Source: Eledone cirrhosa (Eukaryota). Taken from it: a DNA stretch of 64,000 bases. The stretch is taken from assembly GCA_964016885.1 (NCBI GenBank), contig OZ024742.1, positions 4,464,001 to 4,528,000 on the forward strand, written 5' to 3'. A program made the position numbers and the translations under genes. Each line of letters starts with the position of its first letter. Positions within the stretch are counted from its first letter, which is position 1. Positions 1 through 63,404 of the stretch are shown in pieces. The notes beneath the pieces are model-generated. The model did not search any database, was not told the DNA's origin, and was given only the letters and a program-made list of their open reading frames with translations.

Positions 1-4578
<4,578 letters not shown>

Positions 4579-4926
4579 TTTATTTTTATTTATTTATTTA
4601 TTTATTTATTCATTTATTTATTTATTTATTTATTTACTTTTTCTTTTTCTTTTTCTTTTTCTTTTTCTTTTTCTTTTTCTTTTTCTTTTACAAAAGGACT
4701 CCGGCTAATTGACCACTCCCCAAAGAAAAAACGGTATGTGCCATGTTATGGTCCTGTGTATCTAAATACCAACCTACCCAAAAAATCCCCCTCCCCCCAG
4801 CCACCATCCATCCCTCCCTTACCACTACCTAAATGTATAAATACCAGAACTTAATATGACACCCAGCTTCCTGAAGATTTCATCTGAATGAAACAGTTCT
4901 CGTCCTATAGAAGCTCCTTCTATACA

Positions 4927-5097: not shown

Positions 5098-5715
5098 GGA
5101 AAAGAATGAAACGAAATTTCATTTCTCACATTTAGTACGGCTGATACCTAAATATAAGTGTGTATACGCACATACATATATGTGTGCAGACGCACAGTAG
5201 TATGTATATATATACATACATGCACACATATATATATGTACGTATGGGTTTACCGAACATCTATTATAATGTTCGGTTTCTTTGTAAACAAACAGCCCAA
5301 ATTACGCCGTACAGTGCTCGGCAACCATCGTCGCTCTTTTGTTCAACACTGACACAGGAACGATGTACTAGTTTCCAGCCTATTAACTATCGTCAGCATC
5401 ATATACCTTTCTGTCATATGATTGAACGTCTGAAAGTATATACTTTCCTTATGCATATTAACGGCTGAGCAGCCTAATTTGCATATCGAGTGAGTCAGTC
5501 GGCCGAGCATACCGAAAACTGTAAATAAATGGAAAAGAATGAAACGAAATTTCATTTCTCATTCTTAGTACGGCTGATACCTAAATATAAGTATGTATAC
5601 GCACATACATATATGTGTACAGACGCACAATAGTATGTATATATATATACATACATGCACACATATATATATGTACGTATGGGTTTACCGAACATTTATG
5701 TATGTGCGTATACAT
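4985..5715 (-). mobile_element. Non-coding HHR-bearing repeat family A (partial tandem, ~430 bp period, short inverted piece), in (TA)n
   Basis: 5093-5270 is repeated at 5526-5697, and 4985-5062 is an inverted piece. Homologous to 59378-60530. Confidence 0.75.
5362..5400 (-). ncRNA. Minimal type I hammerhead ribozyme
   Basis: Minus strand reads gatg-CTGACGA-tagtt aata ggctg-GAAAC-ta-GTA-catc. Stem I is gatg/catc and stem III is the palindrome ACTAGT. Confidence 0.75.
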
Positions 5716-8529: not shown

Positions 8530-9165
8530 ACTGATGATGGATAGTCTTGGCTTCTAGCTCTATTTTTTAATTCATATGTATCACATTCGCAACAACGCAG
8601 CACGCCATTTTTCATCCTATAATTTTTCCCTTCGCTGTGACCTGTCTTTTTCTCTTCCCTTACTGCTATCCTCTTTCTCTCTACCCCTTCTCTCTCCTTG
8701 TACCTCTTACTTTCATTCACCCCTTCTCGGTTAGTCTCTTCCTCACACTTTCACTCACTCTCTGCTACTCACCCTCTCTCACCTCTTCCCGCCTGACCCG
8801 TGTGAAATTCTTTTCTCGCTTACATTTCGCTTGGCTTAGACATGTCTGTTGTCTTCTCGTCAATGATTCGCTAGATCTTATGTTCACATGTATCACTGAC
8901 TTGTTTCTCATTTTTCCACTATTTACGTTGCCTCACCATTCTTGTTTGTTTACATGTCTCTCTTTCTCCACCCAATTCTTTTTATCCCAATAACTTATTT
9001 TAGTTATTGCTCGCGCTGACCTGAGGTATATGATCTTTAATGCGAAGAAATACCAGAAGAAATACCAGAAGATCACTGTGATGGATAGTCCTGGCTTCTA
9101 GGTCTATTTTTTTTATTCATATGTATCACATTCACAACAACGCAGCACGCCATTTTTCATTCCTA
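8530..9165 (+). mobile_element. Repeat family K (permuted-hammerhead family), partial tandem, degenerate motif
   Basis: 8530-8620 is repeated at 9075-9165. The pyrimidine-rich body is homologous to 11290-11942 and 58316-59345. Flanked by (TA)n. Confidence 0.7.
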
Positions 9166-9169
9166 TATA

Positions 9170-9626
9170 TATATATATACACAGAAATATCCACGGTTAG
9201 TTGTGGGGTCGAGTCTGCATGAAGAACTCAATGTAATCCATATGTTGAAAATGTTGTAGGTTAAAATAAATCCCGGAAAACAATAAAACATCAAAAGGAA
9301 AACAGAGTCACGATATAAGTTAAAACAATGAAATAAAAATTCATATCATTAGGAATATACTTCACTGCTTTAAGATCATTTCTAGGTGATTATAATACAT
9401 CATACGAATATTTCGTTATCGATCTATGTAAGGTTAGTTACAAAATATCAAATAAGGAATATATTTACCTACGTGTATATCATCAGCCGTTGTCAAAAGC
9501 AATGAATTTTTTATTCAAAATCAATAGATAGAGGTATAATTACATAGATACTCCATTAAAAACATACATACGCATACATAGATATATACATATACATATA
9601 CATACACATACATACATACATACACG

Positions 9627-9668
<42 letters not shown>

Positions 9669-11285
9669 CATATACATACATATATACATGTACACACACC
9701 TACATGTACATGCACATACATACACACATTCTCATATACACACATATATATACATATATATATATATATTCTCTTATCATACATACATAGATACATGTAT
9801 ACCCATGCAATTACAGGTGGTTATGTATCTTGATGCCCTTAGTCAGTAATGCATGAATCTATGGAAGCTAAACAATTATAAGGTTAAAAAATTAACAGGA
9901 AGGCGTATAATAAGAAGGGTATACTATCAAAGAGGTACGTCACGTAGAGCTATAGTGAGCTGCTATTTAGAATGTTTAATTAGGTTTATAGTATTTAAAT
10001 GTTTTTCATATACGATGATTACAAGCTATAATCAGTCTTGTCTTTTATTCAATAAATCATCCTTAGATTTAGTAATTCCAAGATCTCACCGGAACATAAT
10101 ATGCATTCTCTCCTGTTCCCAAGATATGGAGTTCTTTGTAGAATGGTATACCACGATAGCCTGAAATCTATTTTTTTCTTTTTATAGTTATTTACTGCTT
10201 CAGCTAAAGATCTGGTATTAGCTAGTTTAGTATTATTAAAGCTACTGGAGTGTGCGTAATATCTTTTCTTAAATGTGTTCGATGTAGATCCTATATACGA
10301 TTTGTTGGAGTCAGTAGTAGACACAGTGCATTTATATATTACATTATTAATCAAACCGTTGCCATTTAAGGGGAAAACGCTTTTATTTCTGCAATTACAA
10401 CCATACGTAAGATGGTTGTTGGAGGTACCTACATAATTCTCATTAATTCTGGAGCTATTTTTATTGTAATTAATGTTAGAGAGAGAATGAGTGCTGCTTT
10501 GTGGGTGATTTAGTGCTGGGGTTGTATTGTGATTTTGTGTTATGTTGTTTTTGTGTTGGTGATTTGGGTGGTTGTGTTTTCCAGGTTGAAGAATTGTATT
10601 ATTTGTCCTTTTAAAAGGTGCAGTCATATTTAAATTATGTGGTGGTGGTGTGGTCATATTATTTTAAAATTTATAAATATTGTAGTTGCTTATTTTCTGT
10701 TGGATATTGTTTGATGTAGAGTATGAGAATTTAACAGTATACCTGTTAAACATTTGGTGGTATCTGTGGTTTGGTGGAAAATGTTTATGTAGAATTTCGA
10801 AGAATTTTTGGGGGATTTGTCCAATAGTTTGCAGGTTGAAGGGTGCGTTGTACCATGTTATGTTTCTTTTGCGGTTTTTAGTTAAGTTCTTATTCTCACT
10901 TATATTAAATAGTAATTCTATTTTTAATACCATTCAACCATTCCTTTCAAAAGGTCATGACCTTAACTAAAGTGAGTTATATTTTGTTTTAACATCATAT
11001 GGCAAAACACCATTTGATTTGTTTGTTCTTCAACTACCTCCAAATAAGATCATAGAACTCAATTTACTATTGATTTTGAATAACATTTTCCTTGCTTTTG
11101 ACAACGGCTGATGATATACACGTAGGTAAATATATTCCTTATTTGATATTTTGTAACTAACCTTACATAGATCGATAACGAAATATGCGTACGATGTATT
11201 ATTATCACCTAGAAACGATCGTAAAGCAGTGAAGTATATTCCTAATGACTTGAATTTTTATTTCATTGTTTTAACTTATATATAT
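9170..11285 (-). mobile_element. 5'-truncated Naiad-like PLE (thumb + GIY-YIG remnant) with inverted terminal copy
   Basis: ORFs 10664-10933 (RNITWYNAPF...FNRYTVKFSYS) and 10049-10657 (CNCRNK..PL, NVIYKC, SYIGST..FKKRYYAH, CILC). ~9315-9520 is inverted at ~11075-11280. Confidence 0.85.
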
Positions 11286-11289
11286 ATAT

Positions 11290-11937
11290 TCTCTGTTAGC
11301 CTCCTCCTCAACTTTCACTCACTCATTCTCTGTCACTACCTCTCCTCCTCCTCTTTCCTCCTCCTCCTTCAAGTTTGACCTGTGTGTAATTCTTTTCTCG
11401 CGCGGTCTTGACCGAGCTGGTATGGAATTTTTTTCTCTCTCCCTTTCGTCTGCGACTTCACAAAACTTGCGTTTACCGAATTCGCAGACCAGACCCCTTT
11501 ATCTTCTTCTTCTTCTTCTTCTTCTTCTTCTTCTTCTTCTTCTTCTTCTTCCTCTTCTCTCCTTTTTTTCTCTCTCTCTCTCTCTCTCTTTTCCCCCCCG
11601 TCAAACTTGGGCGAAATTCTTTCCTTGCTCACATTTCAACCAGGTTTGATGGTCTTTTGTCTCTTGTTCACGATTTCACAGAGTTTATATTCATAGAGAT
11701 CTGGGACTTGTCTATTTCTACTCACTTTCCGTTGCTAAAACTTTTTTGTTGTTACTCTGGCGTCCCCCCTTTATTTACGTGTCCCAACGACTTTTTTTAG
11801 CCGTTGTTCGCACCAACCCGAGGCATATGGCCCTTAAAGCGATGAAATGCCCAGGACGGTTGGAGGGTCACTGATGAAGGACTCACTTTTTCATATGTAT
11901 CCCATTTGCAACGCCGCAGCTCCATTATTATCATATT

Positions 11938-11942
<5 letters not shown>
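11290..11942 (+). mobile_element. Repeat family K copy (non-coding, PLE pLTR/retrozyme-like)
   Basis: High similarity to the 58316-59345 units; (TA)n on both sides. Confidence 0.8.
11813..11878 (+). ncRNA. Candidate permuted/pseudoknotted hammerhead with kink-turn (family K)
   Basis: ccaacc-c-GA-ggcat-A-tggccct-taaagcgat-GAAAtgcc-cag-GA-c-ggttgg-agggtca-CTGATGA-a. Predicted cleavage after 11827. Confidence 0.6.
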
Positions 11943-13181: not shown

Positions 13182-13379
13182 TTACTCGAATTAGTCATTG
13201 AACTATCCTTAAGTGTGTGTAACAGTGCGCCATGTTTATGTGGTGTGTCTGTATGTGTTGTAAAGTATCAGTTTGACAAATATAGCAAGATAAACATATT
13301 CCGAGGTCGATATGATAAACAAATGATTCAGGGCTCCTTCATGTTATTTCTATCTTGAATAGTTTCTGATTTTAATCAT

Positions 13380-13970
13380 GGTTTCTGATTTAGGCACAAG
13401 GCAAACCATTTTGGGGGAGGGAAAAGTCGATTAAATGGACCTCGGTGCGTTACGGATACTTCACTTTATTGACCCCGTAAAAATGAAAAGCAAAGCTAAC
13501 CTCGAAGGGATTTGAAATCAGAACATAAAGGGACGTAACTATATGCCATAAAGCATGGTGTACGACACTCTACCGATCCTGCCAATCCACCGTCCTTCAG
13601 CCTTGAATAATAATAATGGTTTTTTTATATAGGCACAAGGCCAGCAATTTTGGGGAAGGGGAAAGTCGATTAAATCGACCCCAGTGTGTGACGGGTACTT
13701 TATTTTATCGACCCCGTAAGGATGAAAGGCAAAGTTAACCTCGGTGGGATTTGAACTCAGATCATAAAGGGCCATAACTCTATGCTGCAAAGACTGGCGT
13801 CCGACGCTCTGCCGATACTGCTAATCCACCGCCCTTCAGCTTTGAATAATAATAATAATAATAATAATGCTTTCTGATTTAGACACAAGGTCAACATATT
13901 TGGGAGGAAGGGAAAGTAAATTAAATCGCCTCTCGTGCATTATTAGTGATTTATTTCATGGACCCGGTAT
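13380..13970 (-). mobile_element. Three tandem tRNA-derived SINE copies (13380-13605, 13630-13845, partial 13870-13970)
   Basis: Repeated ggcacaagg...atcgaccccgtaaggatgaaaggcaaag...gggatttgaactcag, with (AAT)n tails. Confidence 0.8.
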
Positions 13971-14279
13971 AAACAATAGTTATATTCTACTTACAGTACA
14001 ATACACTTTATTTTTTCATGGTTTTATGCTGAGGTCAAGGAATTCACTATAAAGCTGCTTGACTTGTTTGAACCAGTCGATAAATATCTCTCAAAACAAA
14101 CCCGCAGGCATTAAATAAAGACGTTCCTCTCGTGCCCACTCTGTTTGCTTATCATTTATTACTCTGTCTAATGAATCTTTCGTTATTCAAGACGGTTTGG
14201 TATGATTTGTAAGGAGTGATTACTATTGCTATAGAAAGTAGAAGGACCACCCAGATTTTGTGAAATACAAGGTAGATTC

Positions 14280-19709: not shown

Positions 19710-19809
19710 AGGAGAGGGAGAGAGAGAGAGAGATCTGAACATGTTCATATAGGAATAAATAAATATATACAGACATATGAACAGATGGATGGAGAGACGA
19801 CACATTTAT

Positions 19810-20037
19810 ATAATTGTTTCTACTTTTGGCACAAGGCCAGCAATTATCTCAGTGTATTACTGGTACTTTATTTTATCGACCCCGTAAGGATGAAAGGCAA
19901 AGTTAACCTCGGCGGGATTTGAACTCAGTCCGTAAAGGGACGTAACTGTGCTGCAAAGCATGGTGTCCAACCCTCTACTGATACTGGAAAAAAAATAGAT
20001 GACAAAGCTACACACATAGATTGTGTGTATATGTATA

Positions 20038-20360: not shown

Positions 20361-21721
20361 GAGAGAGAATAATGCATGTACATCATGAAGTGAAAAGTTA
20401 TGATACTAATTTTAATCTCAGAAATACGGTTTGCATTTGCAATATTTCTTTTTCTAAACAAATCCACGTGCACTTGATCTGTCCGCATATAGAAACACAT
20501 ACAGTTCTACACCTACGTGTATTCGTTCTTCAAAATATCTCAGCTCCATACACTATTGCCTTTCTTATGCACCTGCTGTTGTGTTGGCAGAACATAGCAG
20601 TTTTTTTAGTTATTGTTTCTATTCACTGTAGCTACAAAAGTGGATATAGTATCGGTGCAACTATAACAAACTTTTACGTTGCTTTTATCTAATACTTTGT
20701 GGAGTTTGCAGCTGTTGGTGTTGGTGGCAGTCGTGGTAATGGCGGGCAAAATGTTTGTTTGAAACTGTCAGCAAATTTCTAGTTATGTTGCATGCTTCGT
20801 TCATCCTAAAGATGTATTTCCTTTTATGTTTCTATTATTGCCGATCCGTATGTTATGTATTGTAACTTTTTTTTTTTTTTTGTGAATCCGTTTCTTTTTG
20901 TACATCGTTGTAGCTATGATCAACACGATTGAATTTTTCTTTGTTCTGTTAATGTTGTTGACGAGAATTTTACGATTGTAGAGGGGCTGTTTGGAATTTC
21001 TATTGATGAGAAATAGATGTTGTGTTTCTTTTTTATTATATCTGTGCGGGTGGTATTTATCAGTATTTAAACCTAATGTATTATCAAAGTTGTATACAGT
21101 GTGTATTTTGTTTATTTCTAAGATAAACATCTCTACTTTACCTTTCATCCGTCTGGAATCTATGAACAATATGATCTAATTGACTGTGTCTCCTACGTCG
21201 AGGGTATTTCTACCCTGGTGTGGCTTGCTATTTCGTCGGTTTGAATAAGTACCAGTAAGATACTGAGGTATATTTAGATTGTTTTCTCTGAGAATGTATA
21301 TTTTAATTATATTAAATCATACATCGTTCGCATTCATCCACGCGGTAGATTCTGTTGTCTACACAATCTTATCTGTCTTATATTGTGTATATCGAGTAGT
21401 ATCTATAGAGGTTTGTGTAGTATTTTGTTGTTGTTGTTCAGAGCAAGGTAAGCTATAGGGTGCTGAGTGGGAGAAGCTAGAATATGATAAAATAAAATAA
21501 ACGAGATAAAACCTATTTTAAGATGGTATATACATATATTATCGTATACATAGAGTAGCGTATATATATATGATAGCTTATACATATTGTACATTATACA
21601 TATACTTGCATATATATGTCGCCTTATACTTATTTTACTATATATATATGACAGCATTTACATAGTGTAGTATTTACATATAGTTGATATGTTAGTGTAT
21701 ACATATAATGAATTATATATG

Positions 21722-21912
21722 TAATTGTTTCTACTTTTGGCACAAGGCCAGCAATTATCCCAGTGTATTACTGGTACTTTATTTTATCGACCCTTTAAGG
21801 ATGAAAGGCAAAGTTAACCTCGGCGGGTTTTGAACTCAGTCCGTAAAACGACGTAACTGTGCTGCAAAGCATGCCGTCCGACCCTCTACTGATACTGCCA
21901 ATCCACCGCCCT
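21722..21912 (-). mobile_element. Near full-length tRNA-derived SINE
   Basis: Minus strand: gggcggtggattggcagtatcag...gagttcaaaacccgcc...gcctttcatcc...gtcgataaaataaagtaccag. Confidence 0.85.
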
Positions 21913-22581
21913 TATATATGTAATAGCATATAAATATCGATGGATCTCCATCAATTTCGACGGTGATCAGCTGAACGGCCTTCTCATGAAATAAACGTGT
22001 AAATAACTGAGCATTCCACATATGTGTGCCCAGAACGTAGTACCAAGGGAGATTCAGCGTGAGAGAAGACCCTTTGAATTACAGGTACAGTTCAAACGAC
22101 AGACTGGCAAACAGTTTCCATCTTGTCATTTCACTCACAAATCATGGGTTGTCTCGAGACTGTGGTAAATGATGTTTTCCCAAGATGCTACAAATGGAAT
22201 CAAATATGGCAGCTAATAACTGCGTAACGAGCGCTTTAACCATTCTGTAGTGCTACATCATATGGTAGTGAATACATATGGTAGTTTATATATACAGTAG
22301 TATGTACGTAGAACAGCGCGTATAAACAGCGCATGTTAGCATATATATATATATATAATATATATATATATATGAGATGTGAGAAAAATCACAGACCCTC
22401 CATCTCAACTCACCTTTTGAAAAGCAGAAGAATTGCGAAACCAGTAAAGGAACCAAATAAATATATATATTTTTAAAAAAAATAAGACTCCAGTTGCATT
22501 TTCGATTTCATCTCTTTTTCTTTATACTTTCACTCGTGTAGGACACCTCGGTTATTTTTCATTTTGTAAAAAAAAACTCAC

Positions 22582-23345: not shown

Positions 23346-24324
23346 CTACCAGGAGTTGCGACCGATAGATAGTATTAGCAATTAGAAAGACCAATAGAAA
23401 CATTGTTTCCTCGGTCCAATTTGACGAAAGTTGATCGAGTGTTTATATACATATATTGCTCTACGCGTATACATAAACTGGCATATTATGAATTCATGCA
23501 TTTCTTTTTTATTTTACATAGCTTTATGTAGTTTATTGTAATAAATCTCGTATTTTTGAGCTATTATCCTTCACCAACCTTTATCTGTTTTCGCATTTGA
23601 AACCGAATTACTATATATATATATATATATATATATAAGTAGAAGTTGTATTTAATATCATTATATTTATATATATATATATATTAAATAGATGATGGAT
23701 AAATCGGTATTTATGCTTTTGACATCAAATGAATATCTAGGATGAAATAAGAAAGTTTTCACCTTGTAATTTTGGTCTTCATTACGTATTGCACTTATAT
23801 AGACATTCTTGTTGCTATTCTGCTAGAGATGAAAGTATAATCCCATAAAGTTCAAGAATTCAATGATCTTACATATTTTAATATATTATACCTCAGTAGA
23901 TATATCTTACTAAGAGGCACGCTGTTGGGGAGGTATTCTCGCTTACATTTACATATAAAGATTGACATGGAATCGACTGACATCGGCTTCGATGAAGGCG
24001 AGTGTTCCAGCTGTTTGATAAACGGAATAGCCTACTCAAGAAATAATGGAATTAATGTGCAAGTGACAGAGCATTCCAAAGACTCTTCAAACATTAATGT
24101 AATCCTCGGGTATATTCAGCGTGACACTGACATTTGAATTACAGGAAGATTTTATCTGACGGGCTTGAAAACAGCTTGACTCAAAAATCTAGTGAATGAC
24201 ATTTGCGCAAAACGCCGCGCGGTAAATCAAGAAACCAAGGATCTTTATTTTGAGAACCGAAATCCTTAACTATCCAGCAAGGCTGCGACAATAATACACA
24301 CATACACACACAACGTTGATTTTA

Positions 24325-24530
24325 TGCTTTCTGATTTAGGCACAAAGCCAACAATTGTGGGGGGAGTCTATTAAATCTAGCCCAATATGTACTTTATTTT
24401 ATCGAACTTGTAGGGTTAAAGGCAAAGCTAACCGCGGCAGAATTTGAACTCATAATGTAATGGGTCGTAAATCTATGCCACGAAGCATGGTGTCCAACGC
24501 TTTACCTAGACTGCCAATCCACCACCATTG
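24325..24530 (-). mobile_element. tRNA-derived SINE (diverged)
   Basis: Same core as 21722-21912. Confidence 0.7.
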
Positions 24531-28639: not shown

Positions 28640-31600
28640 GAAAATAATGTCCAAGTTTATTGTGTTGTATCAGATGAAAGAATGGTATTTAACTAATGTA
28701 TTGGTACGCGATGGGGCCCACCCACAGCCCCGGCGGCAGAATGGAGAAGGCGTTTTCCGGAGGATGACAAGGGAGACGCGTTGGAAAAGCCACTCCAACT
28801 CGCGGGGCTCACACCTGCGGCTGGTCAGCTCAGCGCCTATGGTGGTGAGTAAGAAGGTAGCCCTGGGGCCGAGGACACCAGAAGTTTCCACTGCCAGGGG
28901 AACAACCGCAAACCTGTCGGAGAGTGACCGGTATTTGAGGAGTTTGGCCCTTCAGCCCGACGTGCAGCAGAACCTGGGTCAGTCGCAGACTGCACCAGGT
29001 TGCGGCTGCAGAAAGTGTCGGTGCAAGTGGAATCCCAGATGAGGGGTTTGCCACCGCGGAACGGGAAGATGGTCATGCCATCTGGCCTTTTGACGTCCCC
29101 TCGATCCAGCCCCACCGGCTCGAGCTGGGAAGGGAAGCCTGCAGCGTCCAAGCCATGCTTAATGACCTCGTTGAAGGCAGTATGGCGTGGAATGCGGCCG
29201 GCACTGTGGTGACAGGAAAGCGGGTGGAGGCTAAAAGCGTCCACGATGGAACCGCAGCGACATTGGTGTGGCTGGCAGATCCGGAGGCCGAGCCTCAGGG
29301 AAACGCCGATTCGCAGGCTATGGTTGTCTAGCTGCGTGCCAGTGGAGAAGGAGGGCAGAGCATTGAACCAGGCACCACTGTGGGGTTTGGAGGCCGCACG
29401 AAAACAAGCAAGGCGGTGCTGGTCGAGCTGGCGCGTGAGCCTGTCTGAGGCCAGGCTGCACTGGATGGCATCCCAAGTGCGTTGGGGGGACTTGACGTCA
29501 ACAGGGGGAGAAGGAGGAGGGACGTCTACTGGGCTAAGTCCCAGCCGGTCCCACGTCTCACAGGCGGCCTCACGTTCTCTGAACACAAAGAGTTCTGTTG
29601 TGTTTTTTGAAGAACCCTGCTGACGGGGACGCAGCACGAGGTTACCGATGAAAGATACGCCGGAAAAGCTAGTGAGATCGGGGACCGCAGGCCTAGGCCG
29701 CCATACCTGAGCGGTAAAGTTGCCTGTTGCCACCCTATGTCGTGAAACTTGACGTTTCATATCCCCTCGGCTGCGGCTCGGACACAAGTATCGAGGTCAG
29801 CGAGGAGAGATGTCTGGGTGTAGCATGGAGCGCTGCGGAGTGTATAGAGGAGATTCTGCATGGCGAAGCAGTTCCTCGGCAGAAAGAGAGCTGGGTGGCC
29901 GTCTATCAAGCCCAGTCGGCTCGTGAGAGTCTGTAGCTGTTAAAACCTGAACCTGATGGTGGAGCGGATGGCCGGCGGATGGATCGGTGACCCGAGGATG
30001 AGGATATCCTCTTTAGGGTCACCTGAACCTGGCGGAGAATGAACCGCACGTCAAAGACGGAGGCTGCAAAGCTCGCAGCATCGAGGCTGACGTTCACCAC
30101 CTCCGACTTGGCCGAGTTGACCTGGAGGCCGATTCCCGCCAGGGAAGGAATCACCGATTGAAGGTCTTGGCAGATCGTCCGTACGGGCCCGCCCAACGTA
30201 GCATCATTCAGATACCAAACATTGAGAGGGGCCGTGATACTCCGGGCGATATGGTCAATACCAAGGGCGAACAGGAGGGGTCCCAAACGGTCGCCCTGTT
30301 GGACCCCAGTAGCCGAGGGTATGAACGTAGCAGCTAGGAGCATTCTCGGGGTTCCATATCACAGGTAGGACAGCGGGTAGGCAGAGGGGGCTCGCCTCGA
30401 GCAGATGATCCCGGCAGGCCTCGAGCAGATGATCCCGGCGTAAAGAGTTAAAGGCATTCCTCATGTCAAGCTTGACAATGAGATGCCTGGAGTCCCTGGA
30501 TGCCGGTACCGATGGGCAGCTGCTGAAGAACTGCCTGATTGCATGAGAGGCTCCCTCACAGCCACCGGACACGCCGACACCCAGTTGCACCGGACTAAAC
30601 TCCTCAACCAGTTCGTGTGTGACGGACTTGCAGATCACCTTGGCCAGCCTCCGGAAGACATTGCCCAGAGCAATGGGGCGTATGCCACCCTCTTTCTTCC
30701 TGAGAGCGGTGAGGCTGGCCGAAAAAAAGGAGGCCTCGGGCGTAAGGGTCGAGGGCACCATGAATGAGCCTATTGGTGAGCGCTACAATTGCACTCAGAA
30801 GGCGGCGCCCGGCCTCAGCGGAGAGGGGGGATGTCAACTCCTTGAGGTGGCCTGGTCGGAGACCATCAACACCTCCGCAGCTGCTAGCTGGGAAGGACCT
30901 GATGGCCGACATGATATCTGCATCAGTAGCCACAAGGAGCAGGTGGGGGTCGAGTGGGGGTATGGGTCTGAGATCAGTGGGTGGCTCAGGGTGTTTGAGC
31001 CGCAGAGCAGCCAGGATCTCCTCGGTTGGTTGGAGGACAGTGTCCTGTGAGGCAACAACTCTGACTGCGTCCGAGACATCACCCATGATAAGCTTTGCGT
31101 TTACCCTGTCACGTATACGCTTGGCGCTGGCCTCGGGGTTGAGGATAGGGGGTGCCTGGCGTCCCTGGGCACGCTTGGAATCGGCGCTCGCCCAAATGAC
31201 GAGACATTGGCCTTGACGAAGGCTGCTGTTGACCGGCCGCCCCGGTCAGCGCCAGAGCTGGGGAGGCCGAGGGCGAGTGGGGCGAAATAGAACAGCCGCT
31301 CCCAGTCACTGGCTCGATTAGAGTCCAGGGCGCTCTCAATCGAGGAAGCGAGGGCATCGGCTACCGGCACCCGTGCCGCTCTCGGGATCCTGAGTGGGAT
31401 CTTCCGGAGCCGCCTGAGCCGAGCGATGTTGACCAGCGAGGCTCAGGCGTCAGGCAAGCTCGCTGTCCCATCTGGTGGTGTGCCAGACGGCTGTGGCTGG
31501 GAAGACGTGGGGAAGAGGCAGCTCCTGCACCTCCACGCTGCGAGGGCATTGGAAGCTCGACGAGTCAAGCCAACGCAGGTGAGGTGGTGGAAGCAGCCGC

Positions 31601-32481: not shown

Positions 32482-35400
32482 GATAGAGTGAGACACGCTT
32501 CACATCGGCTCTGCTATTCTATCGGAATTTACCCTTACTATAGTAAGTACCAGTGAATTTTTTCAGTGCAACACATTTGGAACTCTTACCCCTGTTATTT
32601 GGGGAAACATTTTTACATTTACCCTCTTTTTAGGGGGTAAAATAAATAACTATTTTTCTGTAAAACTTCTTTCTTGGACGCATGGCGGGAAAGATGGCAG
32701 ATATGTCTGCCATTAGCTCTGCCACGCCCCCTAAGTCTGAAGAACAAAAAATGGATACAACAAAACTAGACAACGAAACAAACAAGGAAAATGAAAAAAC
32801 AAATGTTACGGAAAATGAGCAAACGGAAAACAAACACACAGAAAATGAGAATACAAAAAACAACAAGGCAACTTTCGCCCAGACAACCAAAAAATCTATA
32901 ATATATACACCTATTGACTTGACTGCCGCCAGAGAAAAACTGGCAGAAGCAAAAAAGCACATAGTCTTGGGGGAGAACGGAATGTTTTCCATTAATTCCC
33001 CCCCCCCCCCCATAATTCAAGAAAACGAGACTAGAAAACACTGTTCTGTTTAGAACAATTCTAAACCACACGAGAAAGCCAGCACAGCCCAGCCAAATGG
33101 AGATAGAGTTAGTCATAAAAGACTATATGAAGAATATTCTCTTCATACGAAAGGACCGACTCTATGGCAGCATTTCTGTTTTAACAAAAGACAAGGAAAC
33201 AGCACAGAGGCTTTCCCTAAGCCCACTCTCAACAACAGCATACAGTTTCTATCCCTCCTACATGGGTAGAAGAACTCAGAGAGTCAAAATACAGACACTG
33301 CTGTCCACAATGGACTTCTGGTAGGCTATTGCTGGCTTCATAGACATGGGCGAGGACACAGTGTTGTCAATGGGGAAGGCATCTGGAGATGCGTTCCTGG
33401 GAATGGGCCTCGACCTACTAGTCCAAATGAGGCCCGAAAGAATAGCGCAAATCCCGGATCGCATCTGGCTGGATGACCTCACCCCAATATATATAATTGT
33501 AGAGGGGAGAAGACCAGCATGCTATTCATGCATGGAAAGGGGACACGTTAAGGCTAGCTGCCCGAATCGTATCCCCCAAAAAGGGGCAGTTAGCCTTAAC
33601 GTTACTCCATCGATTCGACCTGGTCGATAGATTTCGACTAGATTTTCCAACTGTGCCAACCTGGACCTGGGCAAACCGCAGTGGTCAATCTAGATCGTAC
33701 CTAGATAGGTTTTTGGTTAGGAGTAAGGATAGGGACGTATTTAGTTGTCCAGAATTGCTCATGGTTGGCTATTCAGATCACAAATTAGTGACCTGCGTGG
33801 TCAACCTTGATAGAACGCATAGACAGAGTCCCGGTTACTGGAAGATGAACTTGTCCTTGCCGGCAAAGGAAGCTTACACGAACCGGATTAGTAGCTTAGT
33901 TAAGATGCGGTTGATGGGAGCGATCGTATACAGCAGGTGGTGGGTATCTCTAAAGAGAGAGATTAAAGTAAGTTCGATAGGTTACAGTAAGGAACTAGCG
34001 GCGAATAGAAATAGGAGGGAAAGGGAGTTAACAGATAAACTAGAAGAGGCGATTAGGAGCGGAGACGTGGCCAGAATGTTAGCGTCGAGAACGGCGTTGA
34101 GCCAGTTCTTTGACGCGAAGCACGAAGGCTGCGTTTCCGAAGTAAAATACGTGCTTTAGGAAACGAGGGGACCAAAGCTGTTAGCTGGGCCCGCGTGACA
34201 GAAGCCAAGAGTGGGATTAAATCCACCATTCGGTCTTTGCGAGACCAGGATGGACGGGTGATCCTTGAACCTGAGCGGATGTGCGAGGCCTTTCAAAGGC
34301 ACTTTGCTCGACTGTTCGGAGGGGGCGGGGGGCCGGACGGGGATGTGGACTTCGGTCCATACCTCGACGGTCTACCGCGTCTTTCGAGCGGCGAAGCGGA
34401 GTGCTGCGAAAGGCCGATCACAGCCACTGAAATCGGTGAAGCGCTCAGCCAATGCAGCAGGCGCAAATCTCCGGGTCTCGATGGTCTACCATACGAACTT
34501 TATTTAGCTATGCCGGTCTTGTTCTCCGAACTCCTCGAGGCTGGCAACAGAACGGGAGAATTCCCTGTTCTGTGACCAAGGGCGTAGTTACGCTAGTGAG
34601 GAAGGACGAGAGCAAGGGGGACGACTTAAGTAACTTTAGGCCCATAACTCTGCTGAATGCAGAGTTACAGATTTTGCCAAGGTGTTGGCGAAGAGGTTGG
34701 CGCTTGTGGTGGGTGGTATGGTGGGAGACGCGCAGACATGCGCTATCCCGTCCAGATCCATTCACGACAACCTCCACCTCATGCGATACATCGTAGAGAG
34801 GGTTGGGAACGAACCCGGCTTTGGTGGGGCCCTGATCAACTTGGATCAATCTAAGGTTTTCGATAGGGTCGATCATGGTTACCTGGATGCGGTGCTAGCG
34901 GCGGCGGTCTTCGGACCCGTTTTCAGGGGCTGGATTTCTGCCATGCACAGTGGCAACGTCTGCTCTAGGGTTAAAGTAAACGGCTACCTCTCGGTGCCGT
35001 TTAAAATTACCCGGTCCATCAGGAAGGGGTGCCCCCTCTCCTCCCTTCTGTACGTATTGGCTCTCGAGCCACTGCTGCGGAAGTTGGAGTTGCTGCGGGG
35101 CATACCCCTGGAACCGGGATTGCACAAAGCGGTCTCGGCCTATGCCGACGACGTAACAGTAATGGTGGCGGACGCCTCGGAAATCGGGGTGATCGCCACC
35201 CTACTGGAGGAATACGAAAGGCTGACGGGGGCTAGGCTGAACCGGGACAAGTCAGTCGGTTTGCAACTCGGAACGTGGAGGGGCAAACCGATGCCGTTAG
35301 ACGGTTTCGTCGGGCGGTGGACGGAGGGCCCGGTGAAGCTGCTCGGGGTCTGGTTCGGACCGGACCTCCAGGTGGAGAAGAATTGGGGCGAGGTGACGAG

Positions 35401-36751
35401 CAGGGTGTTGGCGCTGACCCAGAAGTGGGCCAAGTGCAAACTATCACTGAAAGGTCGGGCGGAGGTGACGAACGCTTACATAGCGTCCGTCATCTACTAC
35501 CGCCTGACCGTCGTGCCTTGCCCAAAGGAAACGCTCACCATCATGGAGCGCATGCTCTTCCAGTTCCTCTGGAAGAAGCGGCCTCCCATGGTGAGGAGAT
35601 CCATCTGCTGCCAGCACCCTTCGAAAGGAGGGCTGGGTATGCCGTGGCTGTTGATGCGTAGGCACGCATTGAGGCTACGGCATCTACAGGTATTCCTCAC
35701 CGGTCAGCCGGTGTGGGCCCCGTTTGTGAGGCGAGCCTTCCCACAGCTCGTCTCGCTCACCGAGCTGCAATCGTGGGTGAAGCAAAGACCGAGAAAACTG
35801 GGCAACTGGCACACCGAGTGTACCCAGGCGCTCATGGCTCTCTGGCAAGCGGACCCGACTATCAGTGGAGAATCCACCTCGACATTCTATAGAGGGCTGG
35901 TGGCTAGCAGGGGCGACGACACCCTTGGAGAGTCGCTAGGCATGGAGGAGGACGAACTGGCCAGCCTGTTCGGTAGAACTTTCGGCCCGGGACCCATGGA
36001 CAACTTCCAGAGGTCCCTAGCCTGGCAGTGATACCGGGGGGCTCTGCCCGTTCGAGAAAAGCTCTACAGACGCGGGCGCCCGGGCAGGGATCCCGCGAAA
36101 AAGATCTGTCCCAGATGCGTGCGCGACGATGAAACCGTTGCGCACGAACTAGTACACTGCCCGGGCGTTGCCGATCTGTGGGGCTACGTCGAACGATTGC
36201 TATCGCGTGTGGCGCCGATTCGATTGGCCGCCGAGTCTGTGGTGAACATCAAGCCGCCTCCTCCCTTCAGAAATGAAGCAGAGGCGGTCTTTCTGTGCGT
36301 AATAGCCATGATGAAAGAGGTTGTGTGGTGGACGCGCCTGAAAGGTCTGAGGTTGGGTGACTTTGTCTTCGGCCAACACCTTGTTTACTTCTTCCGATAC
36401 CACTTCGGAAGAAGGATCAGGATGGAGAGAGAAGTGCTTGGCCCCAGACAGTTTTATGAAAGGTGGGTGAAAGAAGCGAGAATGGCTCGTGTAAATGGGC
36501 CTTCTCTCTACATTGTTCTGTAGGTGAAGAAGTGAAGAGGAAAGGGGGAGCGCCTCCTCTCTGGGCTTCCCCCGCGAAAAGGGTTGCACACTTTTCGGGG
36601 TATGTGCAATCCCCAACACGCCCCCTCCCTTTTGAGGACTTTTTATTATTATATTATTCTTATTGTTATGCCTTTTTCTTTACTCGCATTTATGTAAACT
36701 CCCCCCTGTGTATTTGTCCCTTTCTCTTGTGCCCTAGTGGCAAATAAAGAA
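32482..36751 (+). mobile_element. Tx1/L1-clade LINE, degenerate, with internal deletion, flanked by (TATC)n
   Basis: ORF1 remnant with CYSCMERGHVKASC knuckle (33346-33630); APE C-terminus TW..N...SYLDRFLV...SDH; RT SPGLDG, FRPITLLN, LDQSKVFDRV, GCPLS, YADD; C-terminal CPRC...ET..H..HC; AATAAA just before the 3' microsatellite. Confidence 0.9.
33653..36523 (+). pseudogene. LINE ORF2 (partial APE endonuclease, RT, CCHC) with frameshifts and a stop
   Basis: ORFs 33653-34159, 34195-34575, 34452-34796, 34682-36031 and 36119-36523. Confidence 0.88.
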
Positions 36752-38294: not shown

Positions 38295-38359
<65 letters not shown>

Positions 38360-38367
<8 letters not shown>

Positions 38368-38928
38368 AGAAAAAATGGGGAGAAGAATACTGCAGGTTGC
38401 ACATGGATAACATGTAATAAAATAAGTCCCTCATCAGTGATTTGCCGACGATCATAGATATTTCATTGCATTAAAAATCATATACCTCACGTCGGTGCAA
38501 TAATAACTAAATTAAGTTATTAGGACAATTAAAACGCGTAAAGCGAGTGAGACAAGATAACAACAAGGATAGCTAACCGTGGAAAGAAGGAGACAAGCTT
38601 CATAGTTATTCTGTTAGCATAAGCTAGGTGAATATATGAGCGCTTAGAAAAAAGACCTTTCAGCAGCGAATTCAAATGTGAGAGAGAGAAAATGATTTCG
38701 TCGCGAACGGGGTGAAGTGAGAAGAGGAGAAACAGTGACTGAGTGAGGAAGAGTTAACGGACGTGACAGAGGGGGCGAAAGAAAGTAGGAGAAACAGAGA
38801 GAGCGAGGGAGCAGTAAGAGAGAGAGAGAGAGAGAAAAAAACAGAATCGCAGTATAGGTAAATATATGTGTGAAAAAATGGGGAGAAGAATACTGCTGGT
38901 TGCACATGGATAACATGTAATAAAATAA
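38360..38928 (-). mobile_element. Repeat family K copy, partial tandem (38360-38425 repeated at 38865-38928)
   Basis: Terminal direct repeat; body similar to 8530-9165 in reverse orientation; (TA)n flanks. Confidence 0.75.
38430..38495 (-). ncRNA. Candidate permuted k-turn hammerhead (family K)
   Basis: Minus strand: ccgacg-t-GA-ggtat-A-tgattt-ttaatgcaat-GAAAtatc-tat-GA-t-cgtcgg-c-aaatca-CTGATGA-g. Confidence 0.6.
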
Positions 38929-41064: not shown

Positions 41065-41813
41065 CAAATAACGAAACGAAATTAAATTTCGTTTCGTTTG
41101 TAACTCACTTTTGTATGACTGACGCTTAAACAATTAAGTTAAAAATGTACATCTACATATGCATACTGAAATACTAGTGTGTATATGAATACACACACGT
41201 ATACATATGTAGGTGTACCAAGTCTTTCACTGGTCGCTTTACAGTGAGCGGCCCAGCTATTCTGTATGTAAACACACAGACAAACCGGTTTTTAGAGTCA
41301 TACTGGTTTTCGGGGGAACACCTTCCCTCTATTCTCCAGAAATTGTTTAAGCGTCAGTCATACAAAAGTGAGTTACAAACGAAACGAAATTTAATTTCGT
41401 TTCGTTATTTGTTTTTATCGTCTCCGCTGAACCGGTGCGTACTCACACTCTATGCAAATTAGTCTGCCCACTACTAATTTTCATAGAAAAAGCATATAAC
41501 GATATGTGCTTTTACAATTCTCCAGAAAGGCCGGTAGATAGGTAAATATTGCTGATGAGTTGTAACAACAACGAAACTAGTTCAATATTCCTTGTCTGGC
41601 TTTCTGGAGAATAGAGGGAAGGTGTTCCCCCGAAAACCAGTATGACTCTAAAAACCGGTTTGTCTGTGTGTTTACATACAGAATAGCTGGGCCGCTCACT
41701 GTAAAGCGACCAGTGAAAGACTTGGTACACCTACATATGTATACGTGTGTGTATTCATATACACACTAGTATTTCAGTATGCATATGTAGATGTACATTT
41801 TTAACTTAATTGT
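41060..41813 (+). mobile_element. HHR repeat family F: inverted block 41060-41340 + forward unit 41341-41813, in (TA)n
   Basis: 41130-41340 is the reverse complement of 41603-41813. Homologous to 60559-61404. Confidence 0.82.
41545..41589 (+). ncRNA. Minimal type I hammerhead
   Basis: aatattg-CTGATGA-gttgt aaca acaac-GAAAC-ta-GTT-caatatt. Confidence 0.85.
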
Positions 41814-43014: not shown

Positions 43015-43690
43015 ATTTCCTCAACACACAATTTGCAGAATCTAGATAAAGCTGTGTTTCGGTATGTGGGTGCTCACGAAATTATTTCCCAAGTTAAAGA
43101 ATAGTCCATATTTTTGCATTTTAAGTTCCATATCAGGTTTGAAAGAGAAGTTGAAGATTTTTTATCAATTCTTTGGAAAGAGCATTTGTGATTATTCCAG
43201 CGACTTTTAAATTCTGTAGAACTTACACCTACATAGTTAAATATATTATCACTGGTTTTAACTGTACATTTATAGACCACGTCCTTATCTAAACACTTAT
43301 TTTGTAAAGGACAGTTTAATTTAAGTCTACAGTTACATTTTGCGGAGTTGTTCTTATTCAGAACGGTACTATTATGTTGGATATTGCTAGAGATATTACT
43401 GCTATTTTGGTTATTTTGGTTAGGGTTTAAATTTCTATTATTGATTCTATTTATATTTTGTGCTATGTTCATAGTTGTAGAGTAGGATAGTTTTATAGTA
43501 TGTCTGTTAAAGATTGAGTGGTATATGTGGGCTTTAGGAAAACATTTATCTAGTGCTTTAAAGAATAGTTTTGCTAAAGGTGTTTTAACGCTTAATGAGA
43601 ATGGTGGTGATGCCAAATAATATTTCTAGTTCTATTTCTTCTGTTAGTTTTAGAGTTTAAGTTAGATTTTTTAGTGTAATTGTGATTAAT
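43015..43690 (-). pseudogene. Naiad-like PLE thumb + GIY-YIG fragment (AT-rich 3' region probably extends toward ~42 kb)
   Basis: RNIIW..PPFS, FNRHTIKLSYS, CNCRLKLNCPLQNKCL, VVYKC, NYVGVS..FKSRWNNH. Confidence 0.85.
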
Positions 43691-52205: not shown

Positions 52206-52813
52206 TTTGTATTACGAATAAATAACTAAGCTGAAACGTTGCTAAAATCGCTCTGTTAAATCACAATCTGCAATCTCAGAAATAAACATAATATTACATA
52301 ATATTTCCTTGTCACACACACACCTTTAGATCTGTGGATTTTAACGACTGGAATGTTATTCATTGCAGGTTTGTTTCAATAGAGCATATCTGGAGATTAA
52401 CAACGACAGAGTTAATGTATGTGACGTGAGGAAGGGTTAACATTATATTGCATCCATCATTGTTTACTAACATGGCAACATGTTTCATGCGATAATATTT
52501 AAAGAAAATCCTTACATCAAACCTGTTGCTGTAAAACACACTTGAAATCCATTATCTACTTTAAATAAGAAGTTTTCTCGTATTGAGCCATTGGTTGGTG
52601 GAGCATTCCATCAATTCTACTTTCCTACTCACCACTCACCACTACACTATACATAAACAGAATATAAGGTTGGTATATATATAAATAAGTATATATAAAT
52701 ATATATATATATGTGTGTCTGTCTGTGTGTATATATATATATATATATAAAACATGAGAAGAAAGAAGAATACTGCGTGGTTGCACATGGGTTACATATG
52801 ATAAAAATAGTTC

Positions 52814-52879
52814 TTCGTCAGTGATTTGCCAACCATCATTGATATTTCATCGCTTTAAAAATCATAAACCTCCGGTTGG
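52814..52879 (-). ncRNA. Candidate permuted k-turn hammerhead (family K; host fragment ~52760-52948)
   Basis: Minus strand: ccaacc-g-GA-ggttt-A-tgattt-ttaaagcgat-GAAAtatc-aat-GA-t-ggttgg-c-aaatca-CTGACGA-a. One mismatch in proximal stem III. Confidence 0.5.
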
Positions 52880-52945
52880 TGCGAGCATTTACTATAAAAA
52901 GCTATTGGGACAAGTAAATCGCGTAAAGCGAGTGGGACAAGTAAA

Positions 52946-54614: not shown

Positions 54615-55040
54615 TGGATTAGCAGTATCGGTAGAGGGTTGGACGCCATACTTTGAAGCATAGAGTTACTTCCCTTTATGATCTGAGTTCAAATCCCGCC
54701 GAGGTTGACTTTGCCTTTCATCCTTACAGGGTCGATAAAATAAAGTACCAGTAATGCACTGGAATAATTGCTGGCCTAGTGCCAAAAGTAGAAACAATTA
54801 TTATTATTATTATATATATATATAATAAATGTAATCTGAGTTTTTTCGGATATTAATAATTGTTTTTATTTTAGGCACAAGGCCAGCAAATTACCCAGTA
54901 CATTACTGATACTTTATTTTATCGACCCCGTAAGGATGAAAGGCAAAGTCAACCTCGGCGGGATTTGAACTCAGATCTTAAAGGGACGTAACTATGCTGG
55001 AAAGCATGGCGTCCGACCCTCTACCGATACTGCCAAACCT
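54615..55040. mobile_element. Two oppositely oriented SINE copies (54615-54800 plus; ~54860-55040 minus)
   Basis: The two copies are near reverse complements and both carry the tRNA-like head and core. Confidence 0.85.
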
Positions 55041-57150: not shown

Positions 57151-57155
57151 TTATT

Positions 57156-58315
57156 GTGTCAGCATACGCCTCTAAAATGGAAAGGCACCAATTGGATATG
57201 TCGTTAAAAAACATACCTATTCAGGCAAAAAGGGAATATATTCTAGGTATGATACGAAGGACCAATGATTTTATTCGACGAATCAGATGGAAAACATTCC
57301 ATTTTGACAAAAGCCGTATAAACCAAACATCGGATCTTAACAAGGATAAATTTGGATTTAAATCTTACAAGAACCCACCCTCAAACCCACTTTTGGATGC
57401 ATTTGAACAAGACCTAATGGATATGATCATGGAGATCAAATTTACAAAACGGAAGAACAATAAACTACAGAATGACATCACGGCACTGCTCAATAATCTA
57501 AAAAACGCCAATGGAATTATTGTTAGAGCAGACAAAACATCAAATGTATATACCATGGATGTGGACACTTACAATAACTTCATCCGTAAGGAATTGCATA
57601 AAAAATACAAGAAAACTAATGAAGCTACACTTAAAAACATCAACAACTCGGCATGTGAAATTGTTAAAAAACTTTGTATTGACGATAGAACGCAACCCTT
57701 AAAACCAGCTATACCATCCTTCAACCTGAAGGACCACAAGGTAAACTTCGATACTAACCCTAATATTAGACTTATATGCCCCTCTAAATCTGATATAGGC
57801 AAAATTAGCAAATATATACTAGACAGAATTATCCCCCAAGTTAAGGTTAAAGTAGAAATTAAACTATGGGGTAACACTCATGAAGCAATAAGATGGTTTA
57901 ATAACATTACTGATAAGAAAAAAATCAAAATTTATTCAGTTTGATATTGATGAATATTATTCCTCAATTTCACCTGATACTCTACATGAAGCTCTTTCGT
58001 TCGCTAAGGCTAATTCCGACCTTACGGATGCTGAAATTAAAATTATTATGGAAGCGAGGAAAACTATAGTTAAATTCGATGATAGCTACTGGGTTCGCAA
58101 AGTTAGACCTTCTAATTTTGATATTACTATGGGTTCTAATGATTCGGCGGAAGTAACAGATCTTGTGGGAACTTATATCACCCACAGACTACAAGGAAAA
58201 TTCAAGGATCTCCACGGTGGAATCTACCGTGATGATGCGCTCCTATTAGTTAAGCATATGAATAACCAGAATTTAGAAAGGATGCGTAAAAATATCAGAA
58301 AGCTTTTTAAGGAAC
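57156..58315 (+). pseudogene. Naiad-like PLE ORF N-terminus and RT core, one frameshift near 57925, truncated at 58315
   Basis: SLKNIP, FIRRIRWK, ADKTSN.Y, LKDHKVNF...RLICPSKSDIGKISK, FDITMGSNDSAEVTDLVG, GGIYRDDAL. Confidence 0.9.
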
Positions 58316-58642
58316 CTTTTCTCGCGGGCATTTGGCCAAGCCGGTATGAATTTTTTTCTCTCTCTCTCGTCTGCGACTTCACAGAACTTATGTTTACCGA
58401 ATTCGCAGACCAGACACCTTCTTCCTCCCGTTAGACCTGTGCGAAATTCCTTCCTTGCTCACATTTCAACCAGGTTTGATGGTCTTTATTCTCTCGTTCA
58501 CGATTCCACCGAATTTATATTCATAGAAATCTGGGACTTGTTTCTTCTTCATCACTTTCTGTTGCTTAAACCATTTTGTTTGTTTACCCTAGCGTCCCCC
58601 TTATTTACGTGTCCCAACGACTTTTTTTAGCCGTTGCTCGCA

Positions 58643-58708
58643 CCAACCTGAGGTATATGGCCTTTAATGCGACGAAATGCCTACGACTGTTGGAAGGCCA
58701 CTGATGAG
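58643..58708 (+). ncRNA. Candidate permuted k-turn hammerhead (family K)
   Basis: ccaacc-t-GA-ggtat-A-tggcctt-taatgcgac-GAAAtgcc-tac-GA-c-tgttgg-aaggcca-CTGATGA-g. Predicted cleavage after 58657. Confidence 0.6.
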
Positions 58709-59265
58709 GACAAACTTTTCATATGTAACCCATTTGCAGCGCCGCAGCTCCATTATTATCATATTTACACATATATTTTTTTCCTCCGCTGCCACCAGTC
58801 TGTTTCGTTCTTTGTGTCTTTACCCTTTCTAGCAGTCTCTCTCTCTCTCTGTTAGCCTCTTCATCACCTTTCACTCACTCACTCTCTGTCACTACCTCTC
58901 CTCCTCCCCTTTCTTCCCGTTTGACCTGTCCGTAATCCTTTTCTCGCGGGTACTTTGCCTAGCCGGTATGAATTTTTTTTCTCTCTCTCTCGTCTGCGAC
59001 TTCACAGAACTTATGTTTACCGAATTCGCAGACCAGACCCCTTCTTCCTCCCGTTAGACCTGTGCGAAATTCCTTCCTTGCTCACATTTCAACCAGGTTT
59101 GATGGTCTTTATTCTCTCGTTCACGATTCCACCGAATTTATATTCATAGAAATCTGGGACTTGTTTCTTCTTCATCACTTTCTGTTGCTTAAACCATTTT
59201 GTTTGTTTACCCTAGCGTCCTCCTTATTTACGTGTCCCAACGACTTCTTTTAGCCATTGTTCGCA

Positions 59266-59331
59266 CCATCCTGAGGTATATGGCCTTTAATGCGACGAAA
59301 TGCCTACGACGGTTGGAAGGCCACTGATGAG
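59266..59331 (+). ncRNA. Candidate permuted k-turn hammerhead (family K)
   Basis: ccatcc-t-GA-ggtat-A-tggcctt-taatgcgac-GAAAtgcc-tac-GA-c-ggttgg-aaggcca-CTGATGA-g. Predicted cleavage after 59280. Confidence 0.6.
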
Positions 59332-59344
59332 GACAAACTTTTTC

Positions 59345-59377
<33 letters not shown>

Positions 59378-63234: not shown

Positions 63235-63404
63235 TATATGATATATTTATTCCCATGAGCTCCGCATACTTTCGCTATCCTAATTGACACACATATGTAA
63301 TTGTGCAACGTTTCGATCAAACTTGAATCCTCGGAATTTCGATGTAACCTTCCTAGCTATTCGTCTTTGCTATCTACATCATAATACTGTTATGTTTCCC
63401 ATAA

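Follow-up and report, generated by a model that had tools for sequence, protein, structure and literature searches.

Hammerhead ribozymes of types I, II and III keep their conserved blocks in one cyclic order: CUGAUGA, GAAA, cleavage site. Here we describe family K, a repeat family carrying a hammerhead motif in a different order, within 64,000 nucleotides of the Eledone cirrhosa genome (GCA_964016885.1, contig OZ024742.1, positions 4,464,001 to 4,528,000; hereafter the window). Types SGC, CSG and GCS were defined by Eckert et al. in 2023, with cleavage shown (PMC10085705). The published type-SGC examples, HRIMA-1 included, come from metatranscriptomes and none from the genome of a known organism, type CSG comes from two metagenome sequences only, and the SGC descriptors need G10.1-C11.1 plus at least two further pairs after CUGAUGA (PMC10085705).

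Several groups of Penelope-like elements (PLEs) and their dependants bear on the comparison. Naiads are 3.4-4.4 kb long, target (TA)n and encode an N-terminal GIY-YIG endonuclease (EN) followed by a reverse transcriptase (RT) with DKA; they were described as having no canonical hammerhead, only 'core' and 'half core' matches, with Naiad_Ovul among eight 'half core' cases (PMC8557442). That absence was used to argue that ribozymes are dispensable to PLEs or parasitic on them (PMC8557442). Hydra-clade elements are defined by RT before EN and also target (TA)n, and the Hydra hammerheads tabulated in the supplement of that study are type I (PMC8557442). Non-autonomous Chlamys elements form pseudo-long terminal repeats (pseudo-LTRs) and share 3' ends with an autonomous PLE (PMC8557442). 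Animal retrozymes yield abundant circles, documented for type I retrozymes (PMC7229834), and have been tied to PLE pseudo-LTRs in a search of type I only (Li et al. 2026, 10.64898/2026.07.22.740005).

K carries a hammerhead motif of SGC order

Self-comparison of the masked 64-kb window, combined with profile searches, located five K loci (Table 1). These hold six full copies of a motif that spans 71 nt and not the 66 nt first reported. Inspection of all six copies reveals the block order cleavage site, GAAA, CUGAUGA (SGC). The core bases (CUGAnGA, GAAA, UH) are all kept in five copies, among them K52, which reads CUGACGA and has one U-U mismatch in stem III adjoining the core. The sixth, K8b, carries a 12-bp duplication and has lost one base of CUGAUGA. 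A covariance model of the motif gives six matches in the window at E<1e-10, with the next at E=2.

Read 5' to 3', the motif opens with a leader (UYGCA), a helix strand (CCRACS), 2 nt and the 5' strand of stem III up to U16.1, followed by A17, the cleavage site. The 5' strand of stem I, UAA, the 3' strand of stem II, GAAA and the 3' strand of stem III come next; 5 nt, the helix partner, the 3' strand of stem I, CUGAUGA and the base pairing with position 11.1 complete it. Stem III has 5-6 bp and ends at U16.1-A15.1, stem I has 6-7 bp, and the linkers are short and fixed (2, 3 and 5 nt). CCRACS pairs with SGUYGG in an extra helix, and the leader pairs with UGCRA/AGCGA ahead of position 11.1. Only one pair of stem II follows CUGAUGA, with the other five drawn from the 5' leader, and this pair, 10.1:11.1, varies among copies (G-C, A-U, G-U, U-A). 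Past the first pair, stem II would be completed by the leader, and the extra helix would connect stems I and II at their outer ends. K appears to be an SGC fold opened inside stem II, after position 10.1, and the motif is predicted to form a pseudoknotted self-cleaving hammerhead. Nested minimum free energy (MFE) folds give stem III with the extra helix only, or stem I alone. An early model, still a possible alternative, in which stem II comprises one pair, a distal G:C and pairs of non-canonical type, gave way to the leader helix once Naiad 3' ends had been compared (see below).

Support for the pairing was assessed with the five intact copies, K8b being left out because its compensations in the extra helix may come from the 12-bp duplication. 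Of 125 cells in these copies 116 are paired, and both sides have changed in 9 of the 25 pairs; none of 500 shuffles reached these figures, and slid structures pair 34-43%. With K8b included, 93.0% of 142 cells pair and 10 of 24 pairs have changed on both sides. Changes on both sides affect four of seven pairs in stem I and one of six in stem III. The helix joining stems I and II (6 bp) is 93% paired, with two pairs changed on both sides, and its partner lies 5', not 3'. When stems I and III are each required to reach 5 bp, an SGC descriptor hits the window four times, whereas 300 shuffles average 0.007 hits and never exceed one; the per-shuffle rate is the useful figure because the copies are related and the thresholds were set after seeing them.

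K resembles published type-SGC ribozymes in its S-G-C order, its full set of core bases, its short linker from stem I to stem II and a helix joining these stems, which would take the role of the published 'I' helix; its linker lengths are also like those of type-SGC ribozymes that cleave in vitro (PMC10085705). The two differ in where stem II and the I/II helix are placed: in published SGC ribozymes both follow CUGAUGA, whereas in K both lie in the 5' leader. Block C is therefore not indivisible, as had been assumed (PMC10085705). The K ribozyme thus has SGC order yet does not hold block C intact, and the published descriptors, re-implemented, give no hits in the window.

Fitting K as a type I, II or III hammerhead failed. 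A scan of all six block orders assigned the K loci to SGC and found none of these arrangements at any of them, whereas the same scan finds type I in other repeats; on the strand opposite to the K ribozyme it detected no further one. A lone CSG-order match at 55185 (-) reads better as a decayed type I. When the whole window was searched against Rfam at E up to 1, none of the 150 listed rows, out of 183, matched K, and K58 alone at E up to 10 gave four chance matches and no hammerhead. A K pattern gave no matches in prokaryotic genomes. Literature searches, with subscription journals outside their scope, turned up no non-circular hammerhead from Naiads or from the genome of an animal, and a paper of November 2026 refers, for other variants, to nothing beyond the 2023 work and a single fungal-virus paper (PMC13725137).

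Table 1. Copies of family K, their hammerhead motifs and the intervening Penelope-like fragment, in window coordinates.
Feature	Coordinates	Strand	Description
K8 copy	8530..9167	+	1.17-mer of 545-bp unit; (TA)n runs on both sides
K8b, decayed K8 hammerhead	9011..9082	+	SGC order; predicted cut after 9030
Hydra-clade Penelope-like fragment (sequence-based assignment)	9313..11281	-	RT thumb remnant 10742-10879; GIY-YIG frame 10049-10663
K11 copy	11290..11942	+	less than one unit; K58 subfamily; (TA)n runs on both sides
K11 hammerhead	11808..11878	+	SGC order; leader-completed stem II; core intact; predicted cut after 11827
K38 copy	38357..38928	-	1.14-mer of 503-bp unit; (TA)n runs on both sides
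K38 hammerhead	38430..38500	-	SGC order; core intact; predicted cut between 38481/38480
K52 copy	52743..52944	-	202 bp; 5'-truncated; (TA)n runs on both sides
K52 hammerhead	52814..52884	-	SGC order; predicted cut between 52865/52864
K58 copy	58315..59348	+	1.66-mer of 623-bp unit; 3' end in (TA)n
K58 first hammerhead	58638..58708	+	SGC order; predicted cut after 58657
K58 second hammerhead	59261..59331	+	SGC order; predicted cut after 59280

Comparison with Naiad 3' ends

Consensus 3' ends of Naiads, taken from excerpts of the PMC8557442 supplement, were parsed by eye, without alignment or score. Twelve records were parsed in this way, and seven show the leader-type SGC order: two from octopus (Naiad_Obim and Naiad_Ovul), three from Acropora (the records ending before Naiad_Aacu, Naiad_Anas and Naiad-1_Movir) and two others, one in supplement part 12 and one in part 19. 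Paired strands in the octopus records are GACACC:GGUGUC for the leader, CGGAU:AUCCG for the helix, AUGGU:ACCAU for stem III and CUGCCC:GGGCAG for stem I; those of Acropora are GGCUCC:GGAGCC for the leader and UAGGAU:AUCCUA for stem I. The octopus records also have an upstream flank, CCCAA...ACTTATTTTAG, similar to that of K, and end about 75 nt after CUGAUGA, inside the K range. The other five parsed records are of type CSG (those before Naiad-3_Nbra, Naiad_Hcon, Naiad_Hpol and Naiad_Lpol, and one in part 13). One further record, in part 8, fits weakly, with a stem I of 2 bp. At least seven further CUGAnGA places in 3' regions could not be parsed, namely Naiad_Esco, the record before Naiad-1_Pfla and five places in parts 17-19; several other 3' ends displayed in the excerpts have no CUGAnGA. 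Nematode Naiad 3' ends and one other, in supplement parts 13-16, read as full type-CSG hammerheads.

Because Naiad 3' ends, read by eye, appear to carry the same fold, K is likely, on sequence grounds, to be a non-autonomous Naiad-type retrozyme. K is like Naiads (PMC8557442) in its insertion at (TA)n, its partial tandems and the leader-type SGC fold read by eye in the seven records. It differs from them in having no open reading frame (ORF), where Naiads encode GIY-YIG and RT, and its body is unlike the 3' untranslated region of Naiad_Obim and Naiad_Ovul. An ORF with N-terminal GIY-YIG, RT and DKA was not found in K or in six frames of the window. A parallel to the proposed dependence is Chlamys MRC1, a non-autonomous partner of a PLE with N-terminal EN, although MRC1 is green algal and has no reported ribozyme (PMC8557442).

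K also resembles metazoan non-LTR retrozymes, being non-coding and low in GC, with one hammerhead per unit, a tendency to tandem arrangement and a proposed PLE partner (PMC7229834; 10.64898/2026.07.22.740005). In contrast to these, it has a ribozyme of SGC order, weakly paired units of 503-623 nt and no full dimer in the window. K works like a non-LTR retrozyme yet falls outside the type I definition of that group because its motif is a non-circularly permuted hammerhead. The proposal in the preliminary description of a retrozyme or pseudo-LTR family served by a PLE RT thus needs amending in this respect; a non-autonomous hammerhead element using a PLE RT remains the best reading.

Units, ends and insertion sites of K

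The three multimeric copies have units of 503 (38 kb), 545 (8.5 kb) and 623 bp (58 kb), in line with the earlier estimates of about 505, 545 and 622 bp. Partial tandems of more than one unit, previously ascribed to the family as a whole, account for three of the five copies; K11 and K52 hold less than one unit. Repeated parts are identical at 87/91, 72/76 and 401/413 positions in K8, K38 and K58, respectively; in K8, 8530-8621 recurs at 9075-9167. None of the five loci is a full dimer. K58 is the sole copy with two ribozymes, which are consecutive, both intact and 623 nt apart.

A three-way alignment indicates that the units are collinear end to end, and the K58 unit holds an internal insertion of about 100 bp that includes a short duplication. 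Over aligned columns, pairwise identity is 68-88% for bodies and 70-85% for motifs; in 60-column bins of the three-way alignment, bodies are about 45-70% identical versus about 70% in the motif bin. The bodies are homologous and not simply diverged around a conserved motif, as had been supposed, and what is conserved in the motif is mainly core bases and pairing. The body is pyrimidine-rich and non-coding: in the K58 unit, the one of three units whose ATG frames were read on a circle, the longest is 62 aa, and K8 and K11 are overlain by low-complexity frames only. Read as circles, the units are 40-46% paired (z = -2.8, -1.7 and -0.1, with 25 shuffles each), unlike the highly self-paired monomers that characterize retrozymes.

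End coordinates were placed by eye, and at 3' ends the (TA)n run itself sets the boundary. All five 3' ends run into (TA)n, as first described, and nine of the ten junctions lie at most 6 nt from a (TA)4+ run, such runs making up 6.5% of the window. No target-site duplication is visible inside (TA)n at K junctions. Relative to the predicted cut, 3' ends fall at +68, +112, +122, +124 and +137 and 5' ends at -966, -538, -80, -448 and -501, and every copy spans an intact cut site. The copies had first been described as permuted, with different start points. Among the window copies the 5' starts do differ, but K copies are not freely permuted because their 3' ends cluster. K11 starts at +189 of the K58 unit. 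Two of the three multimers stop where the upstream ribozyme has its 3' edge, K8 at +45 and K38 at +56; in all three the 3' end lies on an ATAT/TATA word already in the unit. Such AUAU words are placed at +64 to +137.

Two conserved blocks flank the ribozyme. Between ribozyme and 3' end, a CATATGT...CCATKTGCAAC...GCAG block (11893-11925 and equivalents) is a candidate RT-binding signal. Two small hairpins considered 3' of the ribozyme amount to a single 3-bp consensus hairpin with none of three pairs covarying, and so find no support from covariation. About 10-25 nt upstream of each ribozyme, CCYAA...YTTTTAG is conserved (e.g. 8985-9003 and 38503-38522 (-)); it looks like a branch point with a 3' splice site, and the word also occurs upstream of the Naiad_Obim and Naiad_Ovul motifs.

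K58 is joined at its 5' end straight onto a Hydra RT frame that is truncated, and the junction (58314/58315) has no (TA)n. The Hydra copy there is inverted, with EN at 56461-57039 (-) and RT at 57069-58314 (+), and the remainder of the RT was not found downstream. The fusion may reflect a template switch or a later deletion.

Elements surrounding K

The fragment between K8 and K11 was initially taken as Naiad-like. In it, RT thumb remnants precede a GIY-YIG that is C-terminal and has a CxC linker; it has its own inverted repeats (9313-9527 and 11067-11281, 95%), and related fragments in the window carry RWK, DKT and CxCX5C motifs. As the RT-before-EN order and these motifs fit the published definition (PMC8557442), comparison by eye with the published alignments assigns it to the Hydra clade, as a neighbour and not part of K. 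The idea that K8 and K11 are LTR-like ends of this fragment was rejected, the two belonging to different subfamilies. They are not a terminal-repeat pair because they share only 229 of 329 aligned body positions; both are on the plus strand and each is set off by (TA)n. K8 and K11 inserted independently of each other at a hot spot of (TA)n. The suspected Naiad link of K finds its support in the ribozyme fold and upstream flank, and not in the flanked fragment, which is incidental.

Further PLE fragments lie at 1-4579, 43026-43625, 43990-45300 and 56461-58314; the set consists of Hydra-clade pieces, one of them a 1.95-kb inverted duplication, and one canonical element with RT and GIY-YIG. A Pfam search of eight PLE and long interspersed element (LINE) frames gave RVT_1 in three and a weak GIY-YIG in one, matches that cannot assign clades. 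Two broken non-LTR retrotransposons have RVT_1 matches, at 32664-36523 (+), where an upstream ORF and endonuclease-like frames are also present, and at 28837-31245 (-). A dispersed, many-copy family of about 180-240 bp resembling short interspersed elements occurs at 13367-13973, 19804-19986, 21715-21913, 24317-24529, 54615-55039 and 63401-63581.

Cores of conventional type I order occur in several further repeat families, at 5367-5396 (-), 59680 (-) and 60262 (-); 41552 (+) and 61074 (+); 12129 (-) and 12614 (-); 22713 (-), 22878 (+) and 42059 (-); and 55185 (-). These repeats often form inverted or tandem structures like pseudo-LTRs, and 41534-41605 and 61056-61127 match Rfam HH9 under the gathering score.

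Discussion

We consider it probable that many Naiads carry reverse-cycle hammerheads and that K is the first non-autonomous retrozyme built on the split-stem-II form of type SGC. Type CSG would then occur in nematodes, and cnidarians, octopus and others would have the split-stem-II SGC form, not described before; a large class of non-circularly permuted hammerheads would have gone unrecognised in animal genomes. A number of points weigh against reading K as a self-cleaving repeat that depends on a Naiad-clade enzyme. The six motif copies represent about three lineages and the structure was derived from these same sequences, which makes the shuffle counts look more significant than they are. 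Just one compensatory change is seen in the leader helix, an alternative stem II register with a conserved G:C exists, G10.1-C11.1 is found in just two of the six copies, and the U-U mismatch of K52 sits beside the core. Cleavage and expression of K are predictions from sequence. The Naiad comparison is likewise a by-eye reading without alignment or score; the Naiad ORF motif was not found in the window, where the PLEs are Hydra elements and one canonical type; K58 is fused to a Hydra RT; and cephalopod Naiads were described as long inactive (PMC8557442).

How K is copied depends on its template. A cut linear monomer cannot serve, because every K copy spans an intact cut site; the template is therefore a religated circle or an uncut tandem transcript. 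We regard it as reasonably likely that K is a repeat with a self-cleaving fold, copied in trans by an RT/EN of the Naiad clade that starts 70-140 nt past the cut on an uncut tandem transcript. A multimeric K locus would be transcribed, and the GIY-YIG of a Naiad-type enzyme, acting in trans, would nick (TA)n. The target end would likely anneal to the AUAU/UAUA word just 3' of the ribozyme, and RT would start internally, copy through the uncut site and stop at variable points, giving 0.3-1.7 units. Cleavage would likely come late in the cycle or affect surplus transcripts, and may give rise to a circle. A Poseidon PLE (PAc), the one PLE tested in vitro, provides a precedent: it initiated internally on unprocessed RNA, and its hammerhead cut was protein-assisted and not needed for insertion (PMC11167929). 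PAc, however, initiated without target homology, unlike the proposed annealing (PMC11167929), and a cycle of linear RNA only would not restore multimers on its own.

A religated circular monomer, produced by two cuts and ligation and primed internally for more than one round, was the template first proposed. It would explain equally the intact cut site of all five copies, would regenerate multimers and fits both the abundance of circles from animal retrozymes (PMC7229834) and the readthrough of two intact ribozymes 623 nt apart in K58, which tells against the linear route. The uncut tandem transcript is slightly favoured, given that the upstream ribozyme's 3' edge is where K8 and K38 stop and that self-pairing of the units is weak, unlike that of the highly self-paired retrozyme circles; with PAc insertion also independent of cleavage in vitro, the circle is a possibility to which we give less than even weight. 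As to the enzyme, the surrounding Hydra-clade PLEs could be the source instead of a Naiad: Hydra elements also target (TA)n (PMC8557442), at least four Hydra fragments lie in the window, and K58 is fused to one of them without (TA)n, the rest of that RT not being found downstream. Hydra elements, however, carry canonical type I hammerheads (PMC8557442), K units match the window's Hydra fragments only briefly (E >=0.09), and the K ribozyme and flank resemble, by eye, those of octopus Naiads, which makes mobilization by Hydra elements unlikely.

Covariation is blind to whether strands pair in cis or in trans, and the pairings might instead form between two ribozyme copies as a domain-swapped dimer, so that each core has ordinary connectivity and SGC order does not apply in cis. 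Small PLE hammerheads are reported to cleave as dimers, axolotl dimers are described (PMC7229834), and the nested MFE folds of K never unite all its stems. The short, fixed linkers, like those of type-SGC ribozymes cleaving in vitro (PMC10085705), and a stem III that is not palindromic render such a dimer improbable. Since PLE insertions are mostly 5'-truncated and form partial tandems (PMC8557442), K copies, two of five of which fall short of one unit, could also be left-over pseudo-LTRs, that is, 3' ends, sometimes duplicated, of an autonomous Naiad family. All three multimers, however, run 503-623 bp from ribozyme to ribozyme without an ORF, and the three diverged units are collinear across the junction at about 67-75% identity, which argues for a short inherited unit and leaves the remnant explanation doubtful. 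The least probable reading takes the motif for a dead ribozyme, or for a folded signal bound by protein, with no cleavage in either case. The 10.1:11.1 pair is not G-C in four of six copies, and eight of nine Xenopus retrozyme dimers remained uncleaved in vitro (10.64898/2026.07.22.740005), yet every catalytic core base has been retained from one subfamily to the next despite turnover of the stems.

Non-circular permutations of RNA were first reported in 2023; K would put type SGC into an animal genome, and its strand break inside stem II would be new. If true, the reverse-cycle reading would explain why Naiads, dominant in many invertebrate genomes, seem to be without hammerheads. Surveys of retrozymes and PLEs with type I descriptors would miss such ribozymes. 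The form of the ribozyme could in turn tag non-autonomous elements to a PLE clade, with type I pointing to Hydra and reverse-cycle forms to Naiad.

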